Source of the DNA: Candidatus Buchananbacteria bacterium
GTDB taxonomy: Bacteria > Patescibacteriota > Patescibacteriia > 2-01-FULL-39-33 > JBAYJR01
Reading direction: 5' to 3'
Assembly: GCA_041665005.1 (NCBI GenBank)
Contig: JBAYJR010000001.1
Span: 4,727-68,726 of the forward strand
DNA: 64,000 nt
Part shown: positions 4,143-58,926 of the stretch, piece by piece
Layout: the number at the start of each line of letters is the position of its first letter
Numbering within the stretch: the first letter of the stretch is position 1
The notes under the pieces: model-generated
Seen by the model: the letters and a program-made list of their open reading frames with translations, nothing else
Told to the model about the DNA's origin: nothing
Databases searched by the model: none
Made by a program: the position numbers and the translations under genes

Positions 4143-7142
4143 ATGAATAGTAGTTTGCTAAAAGATTTAAATGCCGAACAGCAACAGGCTGTCACTTATG
4201 GTGACGGTCCTTTGTTATTGGTTTCGGGCGCCGGTACTGGTAAAACCACTGTAATTACTCGGCGGCTAGCTTATTTAATTTTGGTTAAGCACGTGCCAAC
4301 TACTGACATCTTAGCCCTGACTTTTACCGACAAGGCCGCCGCCGAAATGGAAGAGCGGGTGGACAAATTAATGCCTTACGGTTATTTGGATATTGCTATT
4401 GGTACTTTTCACGCTTGGTGCGAAAAGTTATTGCAAGATTATGGTTTGGAAATTGGCCTGCCAAATAATTTTAAGTTATTAAATACTACTGAGCAGTGGT
4501 TATTGGTGCGACAAAATTTAGCCAAGTTTAAATTAGATTATTATCGGCCGCTAGGTAATCCTATTCGGTTTATTCACGAACTAATTAAACATTTTTCTCG
4601 CTTGAAAGATGAAAACATTACGCCAGAGCAATATTTGGCCTATGCCGAAAATTTAAAGCTTAATGCCGATTCGGCGGATTTTATTAAAGAATTGATTGAC
4701 GACGAGACGCGCGCCAGTTTGACGGAGTCAGAATTAAAAGAATTATCAACGCAAGAAATTAAAAAAGTTGAGGAAGTGGCCAATGCTTACCACCTTTATC
4801 AGCAATTATTACTAGACAACCAGGCCTTGGATTTTGGCGATTTAATTACCTACAGCTTGCGCCTACTTAAAGCCCGGCCTAAGATTTTAGCTAAGTTAAG
4901 AAAGAAATATCAATATATTCTGGTGGACGAATTTCAGGATACTAATTTAGCGCAATATGATTTGATTAAGTTGTTGGCTACGCCGCGTAATAATCTGACG
5001 GTTTGTGGTGATGATGATCAATCAGTTTATAAATTTCGCGGGGCGGCGATTTCTAACGTTTTACATTTTATGGATGATTTTCCCGCCGCGACTAAGATTT
5101 TTTTAACCAAAAATTATCGTTCGGCGCAAAATATTTTAGATTTGGCTCATGCTTTTATTAAACAAAACGATCCTAATCGTTTGGAATATAAATTGGCTCA
5201 AGGAAAAGCTACACCTAAAAAATTGACCGCACAAATAAAAGCGGACGGCGAAATTTTACATTTACACGCGGCCACTGCCGAACAGGAAGTAAACGCGGTT
5301 TTGAGCAAAATCGCGGAATTAAAAATATCAGACCCCAGTTGTAATTGGAGCGATTTTGCCATTTTGGTGCGCGCCAATGATACTGCCAGTTTATTTATTT
5401 ATGCCTTGGAAAAAAATGAATTGCCTTACCAATTTGTGGCCTCACGGGGTTTATATAGTAAGCCAATTATTTTGGATATTTTAGCTTATTTAAAGTTGTT
5501 GGATAATTATCATGAAGGCCCGGCGCTGTATCGGGTGTTACGTTGGCCGCAGTTTAATTTATCCACGGCCGCCTTGATGAATTTAAGTTATTGGTCCCAG
5601 CGCAAAAGTCAGTCGCTGTATGAAACCTTAAAGCAGGCGGCCGCCGTACCGCAATTGCCCGAAGAAGAAATTGGTGAAGTTAATAAATTATTAGCCTTGA
5701 TTGAAAAACATTCGCAATTAACCAAAACCAAAGCGGTCAGCGAGGTGATTTTAACTTTTTTAGAGGATACAGGTTACCTAAAAGAATTAACCAGGCTTGA
5801 AAATGTTAAATCAGTGGAAGCGGCGGCTCAGTTAGAACAGTTTTATAAAAAAATTAGAGATTGGGAAAGTGCCGCGGCGGAAAAAACGGTGCACAATTTT
5901 TTACAGCTGATTGAGTTTGAATTAGAGGCGGGTGAAGCCGGCGCTTTAAAGCCGTCCACTCAAGCGGGACCGGAAGCGATTAAAGTAATGACCGTGCATG
6001 CCGCTAAAGGCTTGGAATTTAAATATGTCTTTATTGTTAGTTTGGTTGATCGACGGTTTCCGGCCAGTGAACGCAGTGAGGCAATTGAGATACCTAGTAG
6101 TTTGGTTAAGGAACAGTTACCGGTGGGCGATACTCATTTAGAAGAGGAACGGCGGTTATTCTATGTGGCGATGACTCGAGCTAAACAAGGTTTGTATTTA
6201 ACCAGTGCCCAAGATTATGGTGGCGCGCGGGCTAAAAAGTTGTCACGTTTTTTGAATGAATTAGAACCATTGGGATTAAAATTAGCTCCGGCCAAAGAAA
6301 CGGCCGTAGCAAACTTAGAAAATATTTCGGTCAGCGCCGAAGATTGGTCCGAGTTTGTCCCGCAAAAATTTTCTTTTACCCAATTAAAAGCCTTTGAGGC
6401 CTGTCCTTATCAGTATCGTTTTGCTCATTTGTTGCGAATTCCGGTTAAAGGTAAGGCGGTTTTTTCTTTTGGTAAAACCTTGCATAACACTTTGCAAAAG
6501 TTTTTTGTTTTGGTCCAAGAAAGATCCAGTGTGGTTCAGCCAAGTTTATTAGGGGAAAGCCAAGCGGTGGCCGGTAAAATAGTTACTCTGGAGGAATTGC
6601 AGGATTTATATGAACAAAGTTGGCAAGGGGATTGGTTTGAAAGTCCGGAACAAAAAGTTGAATATTTAGCCAAAGGTAGAAGTATTTTAAAAAATTTTTA
6701 TCAATCGCTGGGTGAAAAATTCCCAGTCCCGCTTTATTTGGAATATCCGTTCAATTTAAAAATTTCCGATGGCCAAGATTATACTATTAAAGGAGTAATT
6801 GATCGAGTAGATGAAGAGGCCGGTCAATTAGTGTTGATTGATTATAAAACTGGAACGGCCAAAAATCCTAGTAAATTAACCTTGGAAGACAAAGAACAGC
6901 TGTTAATTTATCAAATCGCGGCTGAAGAAATTTTTGACCGGCCCGTCCAGAAGCTGTATTATTACTATTTAGAAGGTGATCTTAAGGCGGAGTTCTTGGG
7001 CACGGCCAAAGAATTGGAGAAAGTAAAGAATAAAGTGATTAAAACGATTGAAGAAATTAGGCGAGGAAAATTTTTACCCACCCCCGGTCGAATTTGTAAG
7101 TTTTGTGATTTTAAAAACATCTGTGAATTTAGAGTTAATTAA
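4143..7142 (+). CDS. UvrD/PcrA-family ATP-dependent helicase fused to a C-terminal PD-(D/E)xK, Cas4/AddB-like nuclease domain
   Basis: Walker A GAGTGKT, DExQD-like VDEFQDTN, helicase motif VI-like VAMTRAK; C-terminus has IDRVDEE ... LIDYKTG and a Cys cluster (ACPY ... CKFCDFKNIC) typical of Cas4-like FeS nucleases. Confidence 0.85.
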   Translation: MNSSLLKDLNAEQQQAVTYGDGPLLLVSGAGTGKTTVITRRLAYLILVKHVPTTDILALTFTDKAAAEMEERVDKLMPYGYLDIAIGTFHAWCEKLLQDYGLEIGLPNNFKLLNTTEQWLLVRQNLAKFKLDYYRPLGNPIRFIHELIKHFSRLKDENITPEQYLAYAENLKLNADSADFIKELIDDETRASLTESELKELSTQEIKKVEEVANAYHLYQQLLLDNQALDFGDLITYSLRLLKARPKILAKLRKKYQYILVDEFQDTNLAQYDLIKLLATPRNNLTVCGDDDQSVYKFRGAAISNVLHFMDDFPAATKIFLTKNYRSAQNILDLAHAFIKQNDPNRLEYKLAQGKATPKKLTAQIKADGEILHLHAATAEQEVNAVLSKIAELKISDPSCNWSDFAILVRANDTASLFIYALEKNELPYQFVASRGLYSKPIILDILAYLKLLDNYHEGPALYRVLRWPQFNLSTAALMNLSYWSQRKSQSLYETLKQAAAVPQLPEEEIGEVNKLLALIEKHSQLTKTKAVSEVILTFLEDTGYLKELTRLENVKSVEAAAQLEQFYKKIRDWESAAAEKTVHNFLQLIEFELEAGEAGALKPSTQAGPEAIKVMTVHAAKGLEFKYVFIVSLVDRRFPASERSEAIEIPSSLVKEQLPVGDTHLEEERRLFYVAMTRAKQGLYLTSAQDYGGARAKKLSRFLNELEPLGLKLAPAKETAVANLENISVSAEDWSEFVPQKFSFTQLKAFEACPYQYRFAHLLRIPVKGKAVFSFGKTLHNTLQKFFVLVQERSSVVQPSLLGESQAVAGKIVTLEELQDLYEQSWQGDWFESPEQKVEYLAKGRSILKNFYQSLGEKFPVPLYLEYPFNLKISDGQDYTIKGVIDRVDEEAGQLVLIDYKTGTAKNPSKLTLEDKEQLLIYQIAAEEIFDRPVQKLYYYYLEGDLKAEFLGTAKELEKVKNKVIKTIEEIRRGKFLPTPGRICKFCDFKNICEFRVN

Positions 7143-7181: not shown

Positions 7182-7478
7182 ATGTCAATGCACCAGCTAA
7201 AAGATTTATTGCAACGCTCCGTTAATCGAGCGGGAATTTCTAAAGAAGTGGAAGCTTCTTTGATTTGTGAAAAATTTTTGGAAGTGGTTAAAGAAACGTT
7301 TGGCGCGGCTTGGCAAAAAAATTGTAAGCCGCTTTATGTTAAAAATAATACGATTACGGTGGCTTGTTTAAACAACGTCGTGGCCCAAGAAATAAAATTA
7401 CGGGAAAAAGTTTTGCTGGCTAGTTTAGAAAAAATTTTAAAAAAGAAAAGCGTAGAAAGGATTAGGTTTGTAATTTAG
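7182..7478 (+). CDS. DUF721 (DciA-like) small protein
   Basis: About 98 aa with the typical W..NCKPLYVKNNTITVACLNNVVAQEIKL pattern of the DUF721 family. Confidence 0.5.
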   Translation: MSMHQLKDLLQRSVNRAGISKEVEASLICEKFLEVVKETFGAAWQKNCKPLYVKNNTITVACLNNVVAQEIKLREKVLLASLEKILKKKSVERIRFVI

Positions 7479-7588: not shown

Positions 7589-7933
7589 ATGAGGATTGAA
7601 AAATTTGAAGATATTTATGCCTGGCAAAAGGGGAGACAACTAGTAATTGAAGTTTATCGGTTAACGGAGGATAGTCGGGATTATTCTTTTAGAGATCAAT
7701 TAAGGCGGGCCAGTATTTCTGTTATGAACAATATTGCCGAAGGCTTTGAACGAAATACTAATCAGGAATTTAAACATTTTTTGTACATTGCCAAAGGCTC
7801 GTGTGGTGAGGTAAGATCGATGTTGTATTTGACTTTAGAGTTTAATTATTTTACCACTGAGCAGTTTAATAAAGTGTATAGTTTGTCAGTCGAAATTTCT
7901 AGGTTACTGGCTGGTTTAATAAAATCCTTATAG
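7589..7933 (+). CDS. Four-helix-bundle protein of the 23S rRNA intervening-sequence protein family (PF05635/TIGR02436-like)
   Basis: Hallmark block FRDQLRRASISVMNNIAEGFERNTNQEFKHFLYIAKGSCGEVRSMLYL. Confidence 0.85.
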   Translation: MRIEKFEDIYAWQKGRQLVIEVYRLTEDSRDYSFRDQLRRASISVMNNIAEGFERNTNQEFKHFLYIAKGSCGEVRSMLYLTLEFNYFTTEQFNKVYSLSVEISRLLAGLIKSL

Positions 7934-8855: not shown

Positions 8856-8983
8856 GATTTATCCCTCCTAAATAGTATTGAGCAGTTTAGCATATTCGGG
8901 GGTTTTAGCAAGGGGATGGAGTTTAAATATTGGTAATAAATAATTAATTTTGGCTTAAATAAGCCAATATATAAGAATGACAC

Positions 8984-9012
8984 TTGACAAGATTTTGAAT
9001 ATGTGATATACT
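8984..9012 (+). promoter_or_regulatory. Sigma70-like promoter, TTGACA-17-TGaTATACT (extended -10)
   Basis: TTGACA at 8984-8989, 17 nt spacer, TGATATACT at 9004-9012; no CDS follows, only a structured region. Confidence 0.5.
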
Positions 9013-9018
9013 GTAATA

Positions 9019-9225
9019 TTACGATAAGAAATCGTAATTAGCAGTTAAAATTGTTTTTTACAAAATTTAATCAAAATTCTCTGAGGAGAGAGTTTTTATT
9101 GTCATTGCGAGGCTGTTTGCCGTGGCGATCTTTAGCTAGTCTAAAGATTTGTTTCACCCCGTTTAAACGTGGCTTGCAATGACAAAATAAAAAACTCTCC
9201 ATTAGGTGAGTTTTTTTGTTTAATG
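9019..9225 (+). ncRNA. Candidate small RNA: 5' hairpin, then a long near-perfect stem of about 24 bp enclosing about 75 nt with internal hairpins, then a U-tract
   Basis: Hairpin attacgat-aagaa-atcgtaat at 9019-9040; arms GGAGAGAGTTTTTATTGTCATTGC (9076-9099) and GCAATGACAAAATAAAAAACTCTCC (9176-9201); inner hairpin atctttag-ctagt-ctaaagat; T7 tract at 9212-9218. Confidence 0.35.
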
Positions 9226-9440
9226 CTAGCCGCAGTGTTGTTGAGAATCAAGTTCTAAAACAGGGAGAAAAACACATTATGTTATATTAGAGCCCGAAAG
9301 TTTTTCATCAGGTATCCTCAATAACACCGTGGCCAGCCAGATTCATTAAACTGACCATTGGCTAATCGGCGACCAGACCCCAACCTGCCTATTGGTTTCC
9401 ATTTAAAGGCTGGAAAAACTTTGTTTTAAGTTTAAAAACT

Positions 9441-9520
9441 TAAAATGATAGCAGCCTCCTTCCTCTGAGGAGACAAGAATTTTTTCTTGGCTTCTCAGAG
9501 AAGGGACAAAAATTTGTTCC
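9441..9520 (+). repeat. Conserved 5' leader element, copy 1 (homologous to 10824-10895)
   Basis: cagcctccttcctctgaggagacaagaattttttcttggcttctcagagaagggacaaaaa aligns with cagccccccttttccaaggagacaaaaattatcttttggctttttagaaaagggataag; the small hairpin changes in a compensatory way (cttc/gaag versus ctttt/aaaag). Confidence 0.6.
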
Positions 9521-9547
9521 AGATTGATTTTTAGAAAGGAGAAAACT

Positions 9548-9721
9548 ATGTTTTCTTTTTGCTATTACGCGGTGTTAATCACCGCAATGTTCGCTCTTTT
9601 TTTTACGGCAGTATATAAAGGCTTAGTAAAAAAAGATTATCTCAAGTTTGGTATCTGTATGGGGTTGATGAATTTTTTCGGCCTCATCATCATGGTATCA
9701 AAGTGGATGCTAAACATATAG
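9548..9721 (+). CDS. Small hydrophobic membrane peptide (57 aa, two predicted TM helices)
   Basis: RBS AAAGGAG 8 nt before ATG at 9548 (MFSFCYYAVLITAMFALFF ...); the track's TTG start at 9524 is less likely. Confidence 0.5.
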   Translation: MFSFCYYAVLITAMFALFFTAVYKGLVKKDYLKFGICMGLMNFFGLIIMVSKWMLNI

Positions 9722-9735
9722 GTTTCTAAAGGTAT

Positions 9736-9770
9736 CCGAGAGAATACTAAGGTATAAATACCATCTCTCG
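9736..9770 (+). repeat. Conserved two-tier hairpin, copy 1 (CCGAGAGAAT-loop-ATCTCTCG), terminator-like
   Basis: Outer stem CGAGAGA/TCTCTCG, inner stem GGTA/TACC; copies 2 and 3 have the same architecture; followed by a T-rich tract. Confidence 0.6.
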
Positions 9771-10325
9771 TCTTCTTGAGGGTTGCAGAATATTTTCTGA
9801 AATTCTCCAGAAGCTTCCGCAGCCGCGGTTTGCGGACTGAGGAGGTTATTACACTATACATTAAAATTGAGGTTAGTCACTTTTGTGACGCTGACTGACT
9901 GGCGCTTTGTTCTTGGTCTTGGACTAAGGGTTTAGCGTTTAACCAGTTGGTGACTAAACCACCAAGGTCTTTGACCTTAAGAGGTTTGGTCTCGGCCAAG
10001 AGTTTTCTTGGCCGCCTCTACTTAAGGGTTGCAGATGATTATTTGAAACTCTCAAGTAGTTTTTTCACCAAGTAGGGTGGAAAAATAAAAAATAGACCTT
10101 TAAAATTTTGCAACTAAATTTTTGCTTAGGAGGCCAATTTTGACTGACGCTTCATTGGTGTAAAACTAAATGATGTCTAGGTTAAATTGGATTTGCCCAT
10201 AATTATTTGGGTCAGGAAGTTAAGTTTTAGAATAATATTACTATAATATTTTCTAGTTTTACTTAACTACAATCTTAAGCAAAAGTTTAGTTGCAAAAAT
10301 TATTTACTGTGAAGGAGGTGGAGAG

Positions 10326-25774: not shown

Positions 25775-25980
25775 TTGACTTATTTTGCGGCTTGCGGTAT
25801 ATTATTACTAGGCGATTGAGGGTTTTACCAAAACCTTTGTTTATTTAAGCATTTTGCGCCAAGCGCAGAACTAAGCCAAGTTTAATGAAGTGATCCGGCC
25901 TGACGGTCGTGATAAGCAGGGTGGAACCACCCCGACACAGTCGAGGGTCCCGGCAGACATTGTTTGGCCGGTTTTATTTT
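25775..25980 (+). promoter_or_regulatory. Promoter (TTGACT-17-TATATT) plus a T-box-like leader upstream of thrS
   Basis: T-box-like core AGCAGGGTGGAACCAC at 25915-25930; an ACC (Thr) triplet followed by A at 25827-25830 in the candidate Stem I; terminator ccggc-agacattgtttg-gccgg plus TTTTATTTT at 25950-25980. Confidence 0.5.
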
Positions 25981-26021
25981 GTGTAAAATATACTAAGTAT
26001 AATAAATAATTATAAAATTAT

Positions 26022-27782
26022 ATGACAACCGAAAAAATTGATTTGCAGATTAGGCGCCATTCTTGTGCGCATTTAATGGCTGCGGCTGTGCAAGTATTAT
26101 GGCCCGAAACTAAATTCGCGATTGGCCCGGCTATTGACGAGGGATTTTATTATGATTTTGATTTACCCCAGGCACTCTCACCCGAGGATTTAGTAAAAAT
26201 TGAAGCTAAAATGTCGGAGTTAAAAAAACAGGGCTTAGCTTTTGAACGCCAAGAATTAACCATTGATGAAGCGATTAAGCAAATGCGTCAAGCTGGTCAA
26301 ATTTACAAAGTGGAATTATTAGAAGAATTAAAAGTCGCTGGCGAAACTAAGGTTAGTTTTTATCAAACTGGGGAATTTGTTGATTTATGCCGAGGGCCAC
26401 ATTTGGCCAGCACTAAAGAAATTGGCAGTTTTAAACTATTGTCTTTAGCGGGAGCTTATTGGCGGGGCGATGAAAAAAATAAAATGTTAACCCGGATTTA
26501 TGGCACTTGTTTTGCTGCCAAAGAAGAATTAGCTGCTCACTTAAATAATTTAGAAGAAGCTAAAAAAAGGGATCATCGAGTAATTGGTAAAAATCTCAAC
26601 CTGTTTGTATTTTCTGATCTAGTGGGTAAGGGTTTGCCGCTATTAACCGAGAAAGGTTCAGTGATTAGGCGGGAGCTGGAGAGGTATATTGTTGATGAAG
26701 AGATTAAGCGCGGATATAAGCATGTTTATACCCCGGATATTGCTAAAGTAGATTTATATCGAAAGTCCGGTCATTATCCTTATTATAAAGACACAATGTA
26801 TCCGGTGATGAAGGTTGACGAAGAAGAATTGATTCTGCGGCCAATGACTTGTCCCCATCATTTTGAATTATATTTAAGCAAACCTAGAAGCTATAAGGAG
26901 TTGCCAGTCAGGTTTGCCGAGTTAGCCAAACAGTTTCGTTATGAAAAATCCGGTGAGTTAACGGGACTAATGAGAGTGCGATCTTTTTGTTTGGCTGATG
27001 CTCATATAGTTTGTCGAAAAGACCAAGCAGTGAGCGAGATTAACAGTGCTCTGAATTTAATTGAGGATGTAGCGACGGTCTTGGGATTAAAAAAGGGCGA
27101 GAATTATCGTTACCGACTCTCTCTGGGTGATAGAAAGGAAGAAAAAAAATATTATAAAGACGACGAGGCCTGGGATTCTGCCGAGGACATTTTACGTAAA
27201 GTTTTGACTACCCGTGAATCACCATTTTTTGAAGCAGTAGGTGAGGCGGCTTTTTATGGCCCCAAAATAGACATTCAGATGAAAAATTGGTCTGGGGGAG
27301 AAAATACTGCTTTTACTGTGCAGTACGACTTTGTTATGCCTAAGAGGTTTAAGCTAGTATATAATGATAGCGATGGGCAAGAGAAAGAAGCTATTGTGAT
27401 TCATCGTTCTTCGATTGGAGCCTTTGAGAGAGTTATGGCATTTTTGATTGAGCATTATGCTGGCGCTTTTCCGGTATGGTTATCGCCAGTGCAAGCGCAG
27501 ATTATTACGGTGTCGGACAAATTTAATGAGTATGGAGAAAAAGTTTTGGCGGAATTAAAAGAAGTTAGTATTCGAGCAGAATTAGATAGTGGTAATGACT
27601 CTTTGGGTAAAAAAATTCGTAATGCCGAGAAACAAAAAATTCCTTATGTTTTAGTAGTAGGCGAAAAAGAAGAAAAAGCGAAGTCAGTCGGGGTCCGGGC
27701 GCGTAGTCAGGGAGATTTGGGTGAAGTAAAATTGTCAGAGTTTATTAAAAAGATTATTAAGGAAGTAATCAAACGAACTTAA
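26022..27782 (+). CDS. thrS: Threonine--tRNA ligase, short form lacking the N-terminal TGS domain
   Basis: HxxxH in the second additional domain, class II motif 2 FRYEKSGELTGLMRVRSFCLADAH, C-terminal anticodon-binding domain. Confidence 0.9.
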   Translation: MTTEKIDLQIRRHSCAHLMAAAVQVLWPETKFAIGPAIDEGFYYDFDLPQALSPEDLVKIEAKMSELKKQGLAFERQELTIDEAIKQMRQAGQIYKVELLEELKVAGETKVSFYQTGEFVDLCRGPHLASTKEIGSFKLLSLAGAYWRGDEKNKMLTRIYGTCFAAKEELAAHLNNLEEAKKRDHRVIGKNLNLFVFSDLVGKGLPLLTEKGSVIRRELERYIVDEEIKRGYKHVYTPDIAKVDLYRKSGHYPYYKDTMYPVMKVDEEELILRPMTCPHHFELYLSKPRSYKELPVRFAELAKQFRYEKSGELTGLMRVRSFCLADAHIVCRKDQAVSEINSALNLIEDVATVLGLKKGENYRYRLSLGDRKEEKKYYKDDEAWDSAEDILRKVLTTRESPFFEAVGEAAFYGPKIDIQMKNWSGGENTAFTVQYDFVMPKRFKLVYNDSDGQEKEAIVIHRSSIGAFERVMAFLIEHYAGAFPVWLSPVQAQIITVSDKFNEYGEKVLAELKEVSIRAELDSGNDSLGKKIRNAEKQKIPYVLVVGEKEEKAKSVGVRARSQGDLGEVKLSEFIKKIIKEVIKRT

Positions 27783-53205: not shown

Positions 53206-54480
53206 ATGGTTAAGGCAGTTAAAAAATTTAACTTAGTAATTATTGGCGGTGGCGCCAGTGGTTTAGTGGCAGCAATTGCCGCTAAACGTCGCCAACCGGA
53301 TTTAACCGTAGCAGTGCTAGAGCGGACTTTTGCTTTGGGTCGCAAGGTGTTAATTACCGGCGCGGGACGTTGCAATTTGGCTAATGTTAAGCTTGCTCAA
53401 AATCCCGAGCGTTATTATCAGGGTGAGACTACGGTAATTAAATCAGTGTTTGAGCAATTTGGTTATACTCAGTTGATAAATTTTTTTGCGGAGTTGGGGA
53501 TTGAAACTTATCAAGAAGTTAAAAATAATAGCGGTAAAATTTATCCGGTGACTGATTCAGCTAAAACAATTGTAGAATTATTAGTTGATGAAGCTAAGCG
53601 GTTAGGCGTTAAATTTTTATTACAAACGGAAGTTAAAAAGCTTAAAAAAACTGGTTTACAATTTAGTCTATTAACAACCACGCCAGAAGGAAAAGAGGAA
53701 ATAATAGCCGAGCAAGTAATTTTAGCCGCCGGCGGTAAAACCTATCCGGCCTTAGGGGCTAATGGCTCGGGTTATGATTTGGCGCAAAGTTTGGGGCACC
53801 AGATAGTGCCGGTTACTTGCGCTGGTGTGCCAGTGGTGGCAAAAAATTCTTTATCGCAATTATTGCAAAAAACTAAAGTTAATTTAGCCGTAACCTGCTT
53901 AATTGCTGGTCAGCCCGTGGCGCAAACTATTAATGATGTAATGTTTACGGATTACGGTTTGTCCGGCACGGCAATTTTAGAAATCAGTCGGCCCATTGCG
54001 AAAGCCTTACAGCAAAATTCTCAAAGCAAAATTATTATTGTTTTAAATTTTTTTCCGGAGCAAACCGTAGCTCAAGTTAAAACTAAATTATTTACCCGGT
54101 GGCAAAAGCGTCCCGAACAAACTTTAGAGAAAAGCTTATTGGGTTTTTGGCCGCCTAAAGTGCCAGTGGCTTTGTTAAAAGTTTTAAAAATTGAACCAAA
54201 TTTATTAGTTAAAGATTTGAGTCAGGCACAAACAAAATGGTTAATAGACAATTTGACTGCTTATGAAATAAAAGTAAGTGGCATTCGCGGTTGGCAGGAG
54301 GCCGAATTTAGCGTGGGTGGCGTGCCGGCCGCCGAAGTTAAGGTTAAAACTTTGGAATCAATTAAAGTGCCCGGTTTATATTTGGCGGGTGAAATTTTGG
54401 ATGTTGATGGTCCGTTAGGCGGTTATAATTTAGCTTGGGCTTGGGCCTCGGGTTACGTGGCTGGGCAATTACAAAAATAA
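53206..54480 (+). CDS. HI0933/BaiN-like NAD(FAD)-utilising flavoprotein
   Basis: LVIIGGGASGLVAA dinucleotide-binding motif and overall HI0933-like pattern. Confidence 0.75.
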   Translation: MVKAVKKFNLVIIGGGASGLVAAIAAKRRQPDLTVAVLERTFALGRKVLITGAGRCNLANVKLAQNPERYYQGETTVIKSVFEQFGYTQLINFFAELGIETYQEVKNNSGKIYPVTDSAKTIVELLVDEAKRLGVKFLLQTEVKKLKKTGLQFSLLTTTPEGKEEIIAEQVILAAGGKTYPALGANGSGYDLAQSLGHQIVPVTCAGVPVVAKNSLSQLLQKTKVNLAVTCLIAGQPVAQTINDVMFTDYGLSGTAILEISRPIAKALQQNSQSKIIIVLNFFPEQTVAQVKTKLFTRWQKRPEQTLEKSLLGFWPPKVPVALLKVLKIEPNLLVKDLSQAQTKWLIDNLTAYEIKVSGIRGWQEAEFSVGGVPAAEVKVKTLESIKVPGLYLAGEILDVDGPLGGYNLAWAWASGYVAGQLQK

Positions 54481-54494
54481 TTTTAATTTTTATT

Positions 54495-55070
54495 ATGTCT
54501 AAAGAAATCGTGTTTGATATTGAAACTCGGGATATCTTCTCGGCGGAAAAGAAAAATCCGTCAGATTTGCGTTTGTCGGTAGTGGTAATTTATCGGTATG
54601 AAACTAATACCTATGAACATTTTTTTGAATCAGAATTAGCTAAACTTTGGCCGTTGTTGGAACACAGCGAGCGGTTGATTGGTTATAATATTAACCATTT
54701 TGATTTGCCGGTTTTGCAAAATTCTTATTCGGGTCAATTAAGTCGTTTGCCGGCCTTAGATTTATTTGAAGAAGTGCAAAAAGCGGCCGGCTTTCGCTTG
54801 AAGCTGGAATCATTAGCGCAGGCTACTTTGGGCTATGGTAAAAGTGGTTCTGGTTTAGATGCAGTTAAATATTTTGCAGAAGGGAAGTTAAAAGAATTAG
54901 TCAAATATTGCACGGACGATGTTAAAGTAACCAAAGAATTGTATGAATATGGTTTAAAGAATAAAGAAGTTTTTTACCAAGATTTTTTTAGTAAAAATAA
55001 AATTAAAGTGCCAGTTGATTTTACGACTAAAGATTTAAAATCCTCAGTTAATTTAAGTTTACCTTTTTAG
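54495..55070 (+). CDS. RNase H-like 3'-5' exonuclease (YprB/DnaQ-like)
   Basis: FDIET acidic motif, NINHFDLPVL, C-terminal CTDDV...ELYEY; the track start at 54435 overlaps the upstream gene, so ATG at 54495 is preferred. Confidence 0.5.
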   Translation: MSKEIVFDIETRDIFSAEKKNPSDLRLSVVVIYRYETNTYEHFFESELAKLWPLLEHSERLIGYNINHFDLPVLQNSYSGQLSRLPALDLFEEVQKAAGFRLKLESLAQATLGYGKSGSGLDAVKYFAEGKLKELVKYCTDDVKVTKELYEYGLKNKEVFYQDFFSKNKIKVPVDFTTKDLKSSVNLSLPF

Positions 55071-55096
55071 CTGTTGAAAGCTTAGTTAAGGCCTAA

Positions 55097-55125
55097 TTGG
55101 ACTAACAGTTTAGTCCAATTTTTTG
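55097..55125 (+). terminator. Intrinsic terminator
   Basis: ttggactaa-cagt-ttagtccaa plus TTTTTTG. Confidence 0.7.
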
Positions 55126-55143
55126 TTTTATTATTTACGTATT

Positions 55144-55207
55144 TTTTGTCATTCCGGCCTACGAGCCGGAATCTAGCCCCTTTGTCATTCCTGGCTTGAC
55201 CAGGAAT
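55144..55207. repeat. Two tandem 36 nt repeats, each TTTGTCATTCC followed by a palindromic hairpin (CCGGC...GCCGG and CCTGG...CCAGG)
   Basis: tttgtcattccggcctacgagccggaat / tttgtcattcctggcttgaccaggaat; the stems are kept by compensatory changes. Confidence 0.7.
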
Positions 55208-55567
55208 CCGGATTAATTAATTTTGTCACTATTACTCCAGAAGTGATTACTTCTCAGCAGAACATTCTCCTTATTATTTCTTGTTCTTTTGGCAGCAAAA
55301 GAACCAAAACTGCTGGGTGACAAATTCACTAGTTGCTACTTAGGATATGTAGTGAATTAATCCTTGACGTTCAATTGTCACCCAGACCCAGGGTGGTTCT
55401 GCCCGCGTTAAATATAAATAATAATAAAAACACCCAATAGAACTTAGATTGGTTGTCGGACTAAGGATGGTTATCTGGGGTTTAGGTCGGTTGTAAAAAG
55501 TATGGGTTTTTGTTAAGATAGACAAAGCTTAACTGCTAAACATCAGTCAAATTTTTATAGTATTTAT

Positions 55568-56635
55568 ATGCCCCAACTTTGCCCCGAACTCACTACCAAA
55601 CTAGCCCCCCTCAAACAACTCAAACAAGAGTTTGATTTGGAATTAACCAAAGCTCAGAGTTTAAGTCCTAATAAACCAGAGGATTTAGTTTTGGTTAGGG
55701 AGGCTAAGATTAAATTAGAACAAGCCTCTCAAGCTTTTCAAGATCTCCAAAACGAACTCTGGTTAGAAACCCCCGAACTAACCCCAGAAAACCTTAAAGC
55801 CCAGTATGAAGCCCAAGTAGACATTCTCCGTAAAAACAACCTCCTAAAAACCCTCTCCACTGGCGAATTAGGTATTGAAGCAATTGATAAGCGGGAATAC
55901 CCCATACCAACTCTAGAACAAATAGAGTTTTTTATCTTAAAAAATAAAGAATTTTTGAAAACCAAAATTCCACAAGGCTTTGTTAAACTAATTATTGTTC
56001 CCTTTGGCTTGCCAATTAGTTCCCTAATAGAGGCTTATAGCAAGGCCTTAATCGAATGCCACAAACAAGGCTGTTTATATGATGCCCAATTCCTACATTT
56101 TGAGTTTAATGCAAAACCTATCCATGATTATACCGGATGGGTCAAAGCCGAAGCCACAGGAGAGCTAGTATATTTCCCCAAAGAATACTCAAAAACTACT
56201 CATCAAGGTAAAACTAAGCAAGAACTTTTACCTACTCAAGCTTGGCAAATTCTAATGCTTGAAGACTCGCCCGATATTCCAGATAAAGGCAAGGGCAAAA
56301 CCGTTAATGGTCGTCAGCAACCAGAAGCTAACCAATCACCCAATGACTATCTTAAACAACTCCAAACCAACCTTCAGTATAAAGGCGAACAAGGCTTAAC
56401 CCCAGAATCCTGGCTAGTTTATGGTTTAGATTATTTAAAAGAAGGACGCCAAATAATTGATAGCCGGCAAGATTACTATAGAGGCTGTATTATGGTTAAT
56501 AGTTATTTTAAAGAAACTGGTTATGTGCCGACAGCCTACCCTGGCCATGGCGATATGTCGGTCACTTTGGATCGGAAGAGCCCGAACGATTCCTGGACTA
56601 TCGGTGCCACCCGCTTTGCAGTAAGTATTCTTTAA
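55568..56635 (+). CDS. Paralog B1: conserved N-terminal MPQLCPELTTKL ... EFDLELTK module plus an unknown C-terminal domain of about 300 aa
   Basis: N-terminus homologous to A1-A3; C-terminal domain shared with B3 and B4 at high nucleotide identity. Confidence 0.6.
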   Translation: MPQLCPELTTKLAPLKQLKQEFDLELTKAQSLSPNKPEDLVLVREAKIKLEQASQAFQDLQNELWLETPELTPENLKAQYEAQVDILRKNNLLKTLSTGELGIEAIDKREYPIPTLEQIEFFILKNKEFLKTKIPQGFVKLIIVPFGLPISSLIEAYSKALIECHKQGCLYDAQFLHFEFNAKPIHDYTGWVKAEATGELVYFPKEYSKTTHQGKTKQELLPTQAWQILMLEDSPDIPDKGKGKTVNGRQQPEANQSPNDYLKQLQTNLQYKGEQGLTPESWLVYGLDYLKEGRQIIDSRQDYYRGCIMVNSYFKETGYVPTAYPGHGDMSVTLDRKSPNDSWTIGATRFAVSIL

Positions 56636-56645
56636 ATAAATTTGT

Positions 56646-57833
56646 ATGCCCCAACTTTGCCCCGAACTTACAACCAAGCTAGCCTCCCTCAAACAACTCA
56701 AAGCAGAGTTTGATTTGGAATTAACCAAAATTAAAAATTTAGATTCTAAAAAATCAGATGATTTAGTTTTGGTTAGGCAAATAAAAAATCAATTGGAGTC
56801 GACCTTGAAAAGTATCCAAGAAATTATGGTAACAGTTGATTGGAAAGATTTTTATTACAGAGAACTAACTTCTGTAGAAAACAAAAATAATTATCATGAA
56901 GAGCAGGTTCTTGAAGGAAACGGTAATGGAGTGTTAGCTTTGCAGGTTTTACATGGTGGACTACGGTTGGTTTCTGGTGGCGGCGATGGTACTATTAAGC
57001 TTTGGGAGTGGGAGCTAAATCTTCCTAGTCGGTATAAAGAGAAGCAAACTTTTTCGGAGCGTTACTCAGTTTCAGCCCTGCAGGTTTTACCTGATGGTAA
57101 TATTGTTTCGGCCGCTAGTAATGGGACTATGAAGATTTGGGATCGGAATATTTATGGTTTGGTTGAAACTTCGCAGATTATTAGAGAACATATGCAGGGT
57201 TATGTACAAACACTTAAGGTTTTTCCTAGTGGTCGAATTGTTGCCGGGATTAGTAATGGTGGTATTGAAATTTGGGATAAAGACAGTCAGGGTCAATATT
57301 ATCAGGCCCAGGGTATTGCCGGGTCGGGAGGTCATGTGCTGACCTTGCAAACTTTACCGGACGGTCAGATCTTTTTTAGCAATGGTAAAATCAATATTTT
57401 GCATCAGGACAGTTGGAATCAGTATGATAGATTACAAGAAATTGATAACCAAGATCTCTTCACTCTGGTTTTGCAAGTCTTGCCCGATGGTCGGATCGTT
57501 TCGGGCACTCTGCAAGGCGACATTCAAATATGGGATCAAGATGCCAAAGGTAAATACCAATTAACTCAATCTTTTTTTGGTCACAGAAATTCTGTACGAG
57601 ATTTGCAAGTCTTGCCCGATGGTCGGATTGTTTCTGGTGGCGGGGATTACACGGTTAAAATTTGGGAACAAGACCAAGCGGGTATTTATCGTAACATTGA
57701 AACACTTTCTAGTGCTAAGGTTACCAATGACCACGGATCGGTCTATACTTTGCAGGTTTTGGCTGATGGTCGGATTTTTGCGGGTTATGGTAATAATAAT
57801 GTTATAATCTGGGATGGTGATAAGGTAAAATAA
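56646..57833 (+). CDS. Paralog B2: same N-terminal module fused to a WD40-type beta-propeller
   Basis: Repeats GDGTIKLWEW, SNGTMKIWD, GGIEIWDKD, GDIQIWDQD, GGDYTVKIWEQD and LQVLPDGRIVSG. Confidence 0.65.
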   Translation: MPQLCPELTTKLASLKQLKAEFDLELTKIKNLDSKKSDDLVLVRQIKNQLESTLKSIQEIMVTVDWKDFYYRELTSVENKNNYHEEQVLEGNGNGVLALQVLHGGLRLVSGGGDGTIKLWEWELNLPSRYKEKQTFSERYSVSALQVLPDGNIVSAASNGTMKIWDRNIYGLVETSQIIREHMQGYVQTLKVFPSGRIVAGISNGGIEIWDKDSQGQYYQAQGIAGSGGHVLTLQTLPDGQIFFSNGKINILHQDSWNQYDRLQEIDNQDLFTLVLQVLPDGRIVSGTLQGDIQIWDQDAKGKYQLTQSFFGHRNSVRDLQVLPDGRIVSGGGDYTVKIWEQDQAGIYRNIETLSSAKVTNDHGSVYTLQVLADGRIFAGYGNNNVIIWDGDKVK

Positions 57834-57843
57834 ATAAATTTAT

Positions 57844-58926
57844 ATGCCCAGACTTTGTCCCAAACTTACAACTAAACTAGAATCCACCAAAGCGCTTAAA
57901 AAAGAGTTTGATTTGGAATTTACTAAAATTAGAAATCTAAACTCTAAAAAATCCGAGGATCTTATTTTCATCAGAGACATTAAATCCAACCTGAACCAAA
58001 CCCTCCAAGACCTCCAAAACCAACTCTGGCTAGAAACCCCCGAATTAACCCGAGAAAACCTTAAAGCCCAATATGAATTTCAGAAAAACCTTCTTATTAA
58101 GGCTGGCTTAGCAAAACCTCTCTCCACTGGTGAATTAGGTATTGAAGCAATCGATAACAAAGAATACCCCATACCCACCCTAGAACAGATTGAAGAAATG
58201 ATGCTAGAAAAACGTAAGTTATTAGAAACCAAAATCCCACAAGGCTTTGTTAAGTTAGTTCTTGTTCCTTTCGGCTTGCCAATTAGCTCCCTAATAGAGG
58301 CTTATGACAAGGCCCTAACGGAATATCATCAGCGAGGTGAGCTCCTAGACACCCAAAATAAACCTTTGGGGCTTGATAAAGAGATTGGTAAAAAGTTTAT
58401 TTATGATAATGGTGCTAAATATTATATCCAAGCCGAAGCCACGGGAGATTTAGTATATTTCCCTCAAGAATACTCCAAAATTACTCATCAAGGTAAAACC
58501 AAAAAACAACTCCTAGCCACCCAAGCCTGGCAAGTCCTACTACTTGAAGACTTGCCCGACCTTCCAGATCAAGGTCAAGGTAAAATCATAGCTAAACGCC
58601 AGCAACCAGAAGCTAACCAAATACCCAAGAAGTATCTTAGACAACTCCAGACCGACCCTCAGTATAAAGGTGAACAAGGTTTAACTCCAGAATCCTGGCT
58701 AGTTTATGGCTTAAGTCACTTAGTGCAAAGTAAACAAATGATTGAGAGCGGGGAAAGAGAATATGGTTATAGGGGTTGTTATTTACTTGATAGTTGTTTT
58801 AAAAAATCTGGTGACGTGCTGTACGCCTATTTATATCGTAGCGATGCGCGGGTCAGCTTGGTTCGGAGTGCTCCGGATAGTCACAATACCTACGGTGCCG
58901 GTCGGTTTTCGGTGAGTATTTCTTGA
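57844..58926 (+). CDS. Paralog B3: same architecture as B1
   Basis: MPRLCPKLTTKL ... then ETPELTRENLKAQYE ... GFVKLVLVPFGLPISSLIEAY. Confidence 0.6.
   Translation: MPRLCPKLTTKLESTKALKKEFDLEFTKIRNLNSKKSEDLIFIRDIKSNLNQTLQDLQNQLWLETPELTRENLKAQYEFQKNLLIKAGLAKPLSTGELGIEAIDNKEYPIPTLEQIEEMMLEKRKLLETKIPQGFVKLVLVPFGLPISSLIEAYDKALTEYHQRGELLDTQNKPLGLDKEIGKKFIYDNGAKYYIQAEATGDLVYFPQEYSKITHQGKTKKQLLATQAWQVLLLEDLPDLPDQGQGKIIAKRQQPEANQIPKKYLRQLQTDPQYKGEQGLTPESWLVYGLSHLVQSKQMIESGEREYGYRGCYLLDSCFKKSGDVLYAYLYRSDARVSLVRSAPDSHNTYGAGRFSVSIS

Follow-up and report, generated by a model that had tools for sequence, protein, structure and literature searches.

Tandem hairpin repeats resembling Ssn-related motifs in a modular intergenic block of a Candidatus Buchananbacteria genome

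The intergenic block and its setting

The window analyzed here is a 64-kb stretch of DNA, taken at its full length, from a metagenome-assembled genome (MAG) of Candidatus Buchananbacteria, which belongs to the candidate phyla radiation (CPR/Patescibacteria). The element under study is a hairpin- and repeat-dense block at approximately 55140-55400, placed in a 497-nt intergenic gap between an exonuclease-like gene and a paralog cluster. The upstream gene (54435-55070) is 3'-5' exonuclease-like with the Pfam domains RNase_H_2 and DNA_pol_B_exo2, and its intrinsic terminator forms the left border of the repeat mosaic and is itself outside the mosaic (Table 1). In the cluster, gene 1 (55568-56635) encodes a 355-aa protein without a Pfam match that is 100% identical to WCW02_00335, gene 2 (56646-57833) encodes a WD40 protein, and gene 3 (57844-58926) is a paralog with 61% identity to the first. 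The paralog family was found to have about 20 members over seven contigs of the MAG, and about 20 copies of the same family were present in an Uhrbacteria genome. The readable part of the MAG amounts to approximately 113 kb, made up of the window and approximately 50 kb in the loci L001, L002, L070 and L071. This is a small sample of a whole genome of approximately 1 Mb and it is skewed to paralog loci; statements on the MAG refer to this sample throughout.

All elements listed in a preliminary description of the block, namely two tandem hairpin units, further TTGTCAC motifs and a set of nested hairpins, were found where they had been reported, and the density and clustering of hairpins were above chance. 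The folds of 55125-55440 were much more stable than those of shuffled sequences, with z about -4.6 on either strand. By sub-block, the RNA fold z was -2.7 for the units, -3.65 for the tail and mirror segments and -2.1 for the inverted doublet, and the DNA fold z of the sub-blocks ranged from -3.0 to -4.9. A perfect 11-nt inverted repeat, not listed earlier, was also found and makes up the arms of this doublet. The motif TTGTCAC is located at 55223 and 55375 on the plus strand and at 55317 on the minus strand; it was not enriched window-wide (7 observed compared to 4.3 expected). The degenerate form TTGTCAY had 16 occurrences over the two strands of the 64 kb, 5/16 of them inside 55146-55385. 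The block had been described as free of open reading frames (ORFs), which is essentially right. A mechanical ORF, 61 codons on the minus strand at 55340-55525, was rejected for lack of conservation in the homologous part of L071.

The two tandem hairpin units and their copies

The two units have the same architecture, consisting of a T-run, GTC, ATTCCnnn, a loop of 5-6 nt, nnnGGAAT, C and YRG, with a perfect 8-bp stem, and their starts are spaced 36 nt apart. When folded as single-stranded DNA (ssDNA), units 1 and 2 gave -8.0 kcal/mol (z = -3.7) and -7.3 kcal/mol (z = -3.0), respectively; the range across units was -7.3 to -8.0 kcal/mol, with z from -3.0 to -4.2. The motif GTCATTCC-N8-22-GGAAT was found twice in the window (55148 and 55184) compared to 0.02 expected. 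The structural pattern, expected 0.13 times per shuffled 64-kb window, was found in 4 copies in the readable MAG.

Two of these copies came from the search for further units that had been suggested earlier, and both are in L001. The copy at L001:351 follows a stop codon by 12 nt and precedes a copZ-like gene, and the copy at L001:11082 is located 8 nt past one paralog and ahead of the next tandem paralog. The triplet GTC is present directly 5' of ATTCC in both window units and in both L001 copies (tGTC). The 3' ends of the four units read CTAG, CCGG, CCAG and CTAG, that is, C followed by YRG, and the loop is gaaa in one same-MAG copy. Members of the unit class were also found in other uncultured genomes retrieved by way of the paralog family (L014, L027 and L054), and weaker ones were found in the Uhrbacteria loci L047, L049 and L050.

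Covariation was scored in an alignment of 8 copies from 5 loci, with 60 stem cells and 500 shuffles. Pairing was found in 60/60 cells (100%) compared to 90% in the shuffles, of which 0/500 reached 100%, and compensatory changes were present at 2 stem positions with 3 pair types each. These findings support the earlier proposal that the hairpin is under selection. The stem pairs were Watson-Crick throughout (G-U in 0/60 cells), in keeping with a DNA palindrome that can be read from either strand. A covariance model (R1) was built from the aligned copies and run on the whole window with filters off, and it matched only units 1 and 2. The forward and reverse scores were 49.3 and 15.9 bits for unit 1 and 37.8 and 14.2 bits for unit 2, respectively; since the forward scores are well above the reverse ones, the repeat is oriented. 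The four same-MAG units have the orientation of the genes around them and are on the strand of positive GC skew, on which they would be exposed as part of the lagging-strand template.

Table 1. Features of the intergenic gap (window coordinates)
Feature	Position	Strand	Sequence and remarks
Intrinsic terminator of the exonuclease-like gene	55095-55130	+	11-bp stem AATTGGACTAA/TTAGTCCAATT (55095-55120), then T-run
Hairpin unit 1	55145-55176	+	TTTGTC (55145-55150), ATTCCGGC (55151-55158), loop ctacga, GCCGGAAT (55165-55172), C TAG; solo
Hairpin unit 2	55181-55211	+	TTTGTC (55181-55186), ATTCCTGG (55187-55194), loop cttga, CCAGGAAT (55200-55207), C CGG
Tail module	55212-55292	+	ATTAATT..TTGTCACTATTACTCCAGAAGTGATTACTTCTCAGCAGAACATTCTCCTTA..CTTGTTCTTTTG; with unit 2 a two-copy repeat of ~110-120 nt
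Mirror segment	55296-55324	+	CAAAAGAAC-caaaa-CTGCTG-g-GTGACAAA; arms pair nested to GTTCTTTTG, CAGCAG and TTTGTCAC of the tail
Nested outer helix	55222-55229 / 55317-55324		TTTGTCAC / GTGACAAA
Nested middle helix	55255-55260 / 55310-55315		CAGCAG / CTGCTG
Nested inner helix	55283-55291 / 55296-55304		GTTCTTTTG / CAAAAGAAC
9-bp inverted repeat	55323-55331 / 55350-55358		AATTCACTA / TAGTGAATT
Inverted doublet	55313-55385	none	CTGGGTGACAA (55313-55323)...TTGTCACCCAG (55375-55385); perfect 11-nt arms 51 nt apart
G-box module	55359-55402	+	AATCCTTGACGTTCAATTGTCACCCAGACCCAGGGTGGTTCTG; dispersed GC-rich hairpin element
Paralog-cluster upstream region	55374-55567	+	homology to L071 and L002

Modular make-up of the rest of the block

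In correction of the earlier description, the block does not form a single unit, and its right end (from 55359/55374) is sequence repeated at other loci. Unit 2 together with a tail of approximately 80-110 nt (55180-55301) was found to be repeated at L001 347-466 with 88% identity over 73 nt (nhmmer E = 9e-15). The L001 copy of the tail stops 4 nt before the ATG at 466 of the copZ-like gene. For this HMA gene (L001 466-671) the probable start is ATG 466 (MKKIILKIKTMHCTGCA) and not the called start at 495. The tail 21-mer GAAGTGATTACTTCTCAGCAG has only one further copy in JGI metagenomes, which is in the same MAG (L001), and it was absent from the viral contigs searched. The mirror segment is missing from the L001 copy of the tail module. 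Folding of 55216-55330, which spans the nested helices, gave z = -3.65 as RNA (0/200 shuffles) and z = -4.9 as DNA. Three candidates within the tail were rejected: a minus-strand mini-ORF in which AAGGAG is followed by ATG-TTC-TGC-TGA at 1-nt spacing, a plus-strand leader peptide in a 7-codon TTG frame without a Shine-Dalgarno sequence, and a promoter TTGTCA-17-ATTACT with a poor -10 element.

The inverted doublet encloses the 9-bp inverted repeat and has a shape like that of REPINs or miniature inverted-repeat transposable elements (MITEs); the DNA fold of 55308-55390 gave z = -4.5. The G-box module was found elsewhere at L071 ~9800-9845, L002 1816-1880 and L001 6340-6400. The L002 and L001 copies are located just past gene ends, and the L071 copy is upstream of a paralog cluster. 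The common pattern of the G-box reads ..TTGTyAyyCAG..GGGTGsTTCTG. The L002 and L001 copies carry an inserted CCCCGC-gta-GCGGGG hairpin and are located between a gene end and a canonical terminator.

The stretch between 55374 and the ATG has a homolog in L071 9815-9990, upstream of the P0007 paralog cluster (E = 1.3e-19), and the last approximately 80 nt before the ATG are also homologous to L002 6770-6841 (E = 3.4e-08). This part contains TTGTAA (55491-55496), a 17-nt spacer and TGtTAAGAT (55511-55519), followed by a leader of approximately 45 nt to the ATG at 55568. The pair matches 8/12 promoter positions, which is under the scan threshold, and it is kept in all three loci; it is likely, from its sequence, to be the promoter of the cluster. 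Compared to L071, in which the order is terminator, approximately 50 nt, G-box and promoter, the window has approximately 230 nt extra (55140-55373).

All genes of the paralog clusters have in common an N-terminal module of approximately 55-83 aa (MPQLCPELTTKL...) and the start context AAATTTATATG, which lacks a Shine-Dalgarno sequence. Paralogs with this module start at 55568, 56646, 57844 and 63232 in the window, at 10001 and 11130 in L001, and at 1041, 6851, 8028, 8757 and 10001 in L002. Their C-termini diverge (WD40, a 'B' domain of approximately 280 aa, and others), a layout like that of protein families in which a common N-terminal module serves targeting or assembly. A profile search of genome contigs with the paralog alignment revealed no close relative of the MAG.

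Several other segments of the window were recorded. A long imperfect hairpin at 9086-9200 (context 8856-10290) has arms with the inverted heads TTGTCATTGCGAGGC / GCTTGCAATGACAA, which are an ATTGC-type relative of the units and form a REPIN-like doublet (9099-9185). This hairpin follows a consensus promoter, TTGACA-17-TATACT (8984-9012), at a distance of approximately 75 nt within a 1.4-kb stretch without sizeable ORFs, and no Rfam family was found for it, only sub-threshold Phe_leader matches. At 25775-25985, a promoter-like TTGACT-17-TATATT is followed by approximately 170 nt of GC-rich hairpin-forming DNA that closes with a stem and T-run directly before the gene at 26022. This segment has no Rfam match and could be a leader, a riboswitch or a small RNA. 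A DciA-family protein (helicase loader) gene adjoins a gene of the '23S rRNA-intervening sequence protein' family (7182-7478 and 7589-7933).

Interpretation and comparison with known repeat systems

We favor, with a probability of roughly 0.6, the reading of the block as a mosaic in which dispersed short DNA repeat modules are led by hairpins of the Neisseria Transformation Sequence (NTS) class and its relatives, the Ssn-related motifs (SRM), which act as ssDNA. The units occur at unrelated genes and are absent at two paralog clusters, the modules recur independently, neither an RNA family nor a convincing promoter was found, and the stems are Watson-Crick; taken together, these observations point to a pile-up like that of neisserial intergenic mosaic elements (NIMEs) or BIMEs. 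The tail, the mirror arms, the TTGTCACCCAG doublet and the G-box would then be separate low-copy modules heaped at one spot, as in the NIMEs of Neisseria and the BIMEs of enterobacteria. When the plus strand becomes single-stranded during replication, DNA uptake or recombination, the units would fold into hairpins and could become sites for an Ssn-type nuclease, the action of which may mark or limit recombination near the multi-copy paralog genes. As an alternative to a role in recombination, the repeat may simply spread selfishly. The units would add a CPR member to a known repeat class, and most of the explanation is already in the literature. Their tandem arrangement is locally unusual, and low-copy modules adjoin it.

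The NTS is defined as CGTCATTCCCGCGMAVGCGGGAATCYRG and contains the older dRS3 repeat, and the SRM are the broader class around it (PMC11893778). In Neisseria, N. elongata, N. wadsworthii and Wolbachia, motifs of this class are bound and cut, solely as ssDNA, by Ssn proteins, which are small GIY-YIG nucleases with a single domain; SsnA, with 94 aa, acts on one strand of its motif (PMC11893778). The key base for binding is the C just 3' of the palindrome, and the three bases 5' of the palindrome are the key to cleavage (PMC11893778). In N. meningitidis, the Ssn system reduces the integration of transforming DNA that carries the repeat (PMC11893778). Repeats often flank ssn genes, and repeat-rich genomes have hundreds of copies (PMC11893778). 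The Ssn family is found mainly in Pseudomonadati, and the main text of that paper makes no mention of Patescibacteria or CPR (PMC11893778).

In the uncultured genome L014, a 96-aa GIY-YIG gene (5219-5509) is bracketed by an SRM on the plus strand (5157-5204) and one on the minus strand (5510-5537). An inverted SRM doublet without a gene (L014 4104-4203) is located 1 kb from the GIY-YIG gene. The degenerate SRM pattern was matched in L014, L047, L049, L050, L054 and L062. A search of 5.8 billion proteins gave 7964 small GIY-YIG matches, which include proteins of approximately 80 aa, thousands of them in Patescibacteria. Small GIY-YIG genes were also seen in other uncultured genomes at L008 11074-11331, L005 1380-1595 and L055 3489-3725; those in L008 and L005 are directly downstream of a paralog-family gene.

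Several findings weigh against the favored reading. To match NTS the window units need 5-7 substitutions and 1-2 insertions, compared to the published cut-off of at most 1 mismatch, and the literal SRM search pattern was not matched by them. The window units fail these search strings because their upper stem and loop differ. They are not dRS3 either, which has the core ATTCCC-N8-GGGAAT compared to ATTCCG/ATTCCT in the window and L001 copies; the dRS3 core was matched by the L014 and L054 copies. The copy number looks low, at 4 in approximately 113 kb of a sample skewed to paralog loci. Regular expressions, tblastn with YhbQ/YazA sequences and a local hidden Markov model revealed no GIY-YIG or ssn-like ORF in the window, L001, L002, L070 or L071 (approximately 113 kb), and for this reason cleavage in this organism is a step that we infer. 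Moreover, no protein of this MAG was among the best 120 of the 7964 GIY-YIG matches. The CPR GIY-YIG profile was closest to the UPF0213 and SLX1 structures, and the CPR proteins are candidate members of the Ssn clade (cd10448). The window units are assigned to the class by their architecture, and their function is predicted from sequence.

It is unlikely that the block acts at the RNA level, as the 3' untranslated region of the exonuclease-like gene or as a separate small RNA with the role of a stabilizer, insulator or attenuator. Its folding is strongly non-random, 3/4 of the same-MAG units are located 8-75 nt past a stop codon and co-oriented with the gene, and GTGACAA at 55317 has two possible partners, 55222 and 55375, in mutually exclusive helices. 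However, both strands fold equally well and the stems are all Watson-Crick. The block comes after a canonical terminator, the units have no T-run behind them, and the single borderline promoter match within the block (GTGACA-18-TAGGAT, 55317-55346, 9/12) is at chance level, the count being equal to that expected by chance. In addition, the RNA form of NTS is not bound by Ssn (PMC11893778). The earlier suggestion of a single structured RNA was not borne out, as the modules recur separately and not as one RNA, and no Rfam family was matched. An Rfam 15 scan of the whole window at gathering thresholds gave tRNA-Glu only, an E-value scan of 54900-55700 gave chance-level matches only, and the three same-MAG loci scanned gave tRNAs only.

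A second suggestion, that the palindromes and TTGTCAY motifs are operators bound by a transcription factor that controls the paralog cluster, agrees with the position of the block upstream of the cluster, with the clustering of TTGTCAY described above and with the presence of the TTGTCACCCAG hairpin upstream of the L071 paralog cluster as well. The idea of a regulatory region for the cluster is supported in part, in that the far right end of the block recurs upstream of the L071 cluster, but the units are not cluster-specific: two other paralog clusters of the MAG lack them in their upstream regions (L071 9719-10000 and L002 6591-6850), and copies are present at unrelated genes. They are also approximately 310-350 nt upstream of the conserved promoter, a compensated variable upper stem is typical of a hairpin and not of a fixed operator, and the G-box is found downstream of unrelated genes as well. 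We consider an operator function improbable, although both it and the RNA reading have some plausibility for single modules. An equally small chance is given to the units being non-autonomous mobile elements (REP/REPIN-RAYT or MITEs of an insertion sequence family) that merely resemble NTS/SRM. The inverted doublets at 55313-55385 and 9099-9185, the dispersed low-copy modules and the doublet without a gene in L014 would fit such elements, but a Pfam scan of 30 window ORFs revealed no domain of a transposase, a RAYT (Y1 transposase, IS200/IS605-like) or a GIY-YIG protein, and there were no evident target-site duplications. Furthermore, the two units are tandem direct repeats and not an inverted pair, and their GTC and C-YRG flanks are a specific match to the Ssn-associated class. 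Some inverted repeats of 8-10 nt, hundreds of nt apart, are expected in AT-rich DNA, and TTGTCAC alone is not enriched window-wide; even so, chance or decaying sequence without function is hardly credible, as the pattern statistics, covariation, fold z-scores and extra copies are all above chance.

Among the fetched loci, 5/15 SRM-like hairpins were found within 300 nt of a paralog gene compared to 7% of random positions, a control that is biased and not restricted to intergenic DNA; we regard this proximity as a lead, not a result. One could go further and propose that CPR bacteria have an Ssn-nuclease/hairpin-repeat system of their own. Its repeats would be placed preferentially beside an expanded paralog family, its ssDNA cuts would steer or limit recombination, gene conversion or the integration of DNA taken up, and the doublets (55313-55385, 9099-9185 and L014) would be a mobile, nuclease-dependent form. 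We consider this quite doubtful. Some CPR members are naturally competent, and to our knowledge very few repeat systems have been described in CPR. The favored reading would extend the recently defined NTS/SRM class to an ultra-small CPR bacterium. The units are found beside a large paralog family whose members have their promoter and N-terminal module in common, and this placement provides a lead on how such families are diversified or protected. The block also carries a warning for annotation, since such blocks should not be called riboswitches or operators.

With regard to known elements, the units resemble Rho-independent terminators in being GC-containing stem-loops past gene ends. They are unlike them in that they are preceded by a T-run and have no U-run after them; only 55095-55130 fits a terminator. 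As in REP, BIME and REPIN systems, the block combines short extragenic palindromes, predicted ssDNA hairpins, mosaics and inverted doublets. The head of REP sequences is of the GTAG type, unlike the GTC head of the units, and the main units are tandem direct repeats, unlike the REP/REPIN-RAYT arrangement, inverted doublets being found only for other modules. The resemblance to dRS3 and NIMEs lies in the association of short hairpin repeats with low-copy modules in intergenic DNA. The NIMEs of Neisseria are reportedly arrays of hairpin repeats interleaved with low-copy modules of 50-150 nt, often near variable gene families. The filamentous prophage and Piv-type recombinase of the dRS3/NIME context were not seen here. 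Arrays of the NIME type are also described in the text of PMC11893778, in which the analogy of REP, BIME and REPIN to ssDNA hairpin repeats is drawn as well.

Unlike the NTS/SRM described so far, the repeats reported here are found in a CPR/Patescibacteria MAG. In common with that class, the window units carry a 5' GTC, an ATTCC/GGAAT palindrome, a 3' C and YRG, and they have an 8-bp stem, a short loop and a variable, compensated upper stem. They are also intergenic, dispersed and located beside multi-copy or variable genes, and a small GIY-YIG gene bracketed by repeats is present in the uncultured genome L014. Between the L001:351 copy and the 28-nt Neisseria NTS consensus there are 3 substitutions, and two of these make up a single compensated pair. 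Such near-identity over so large a phylogenetic distance is a reminder that such hairpins may travel with, or be maintained by, a conserved protein partner.
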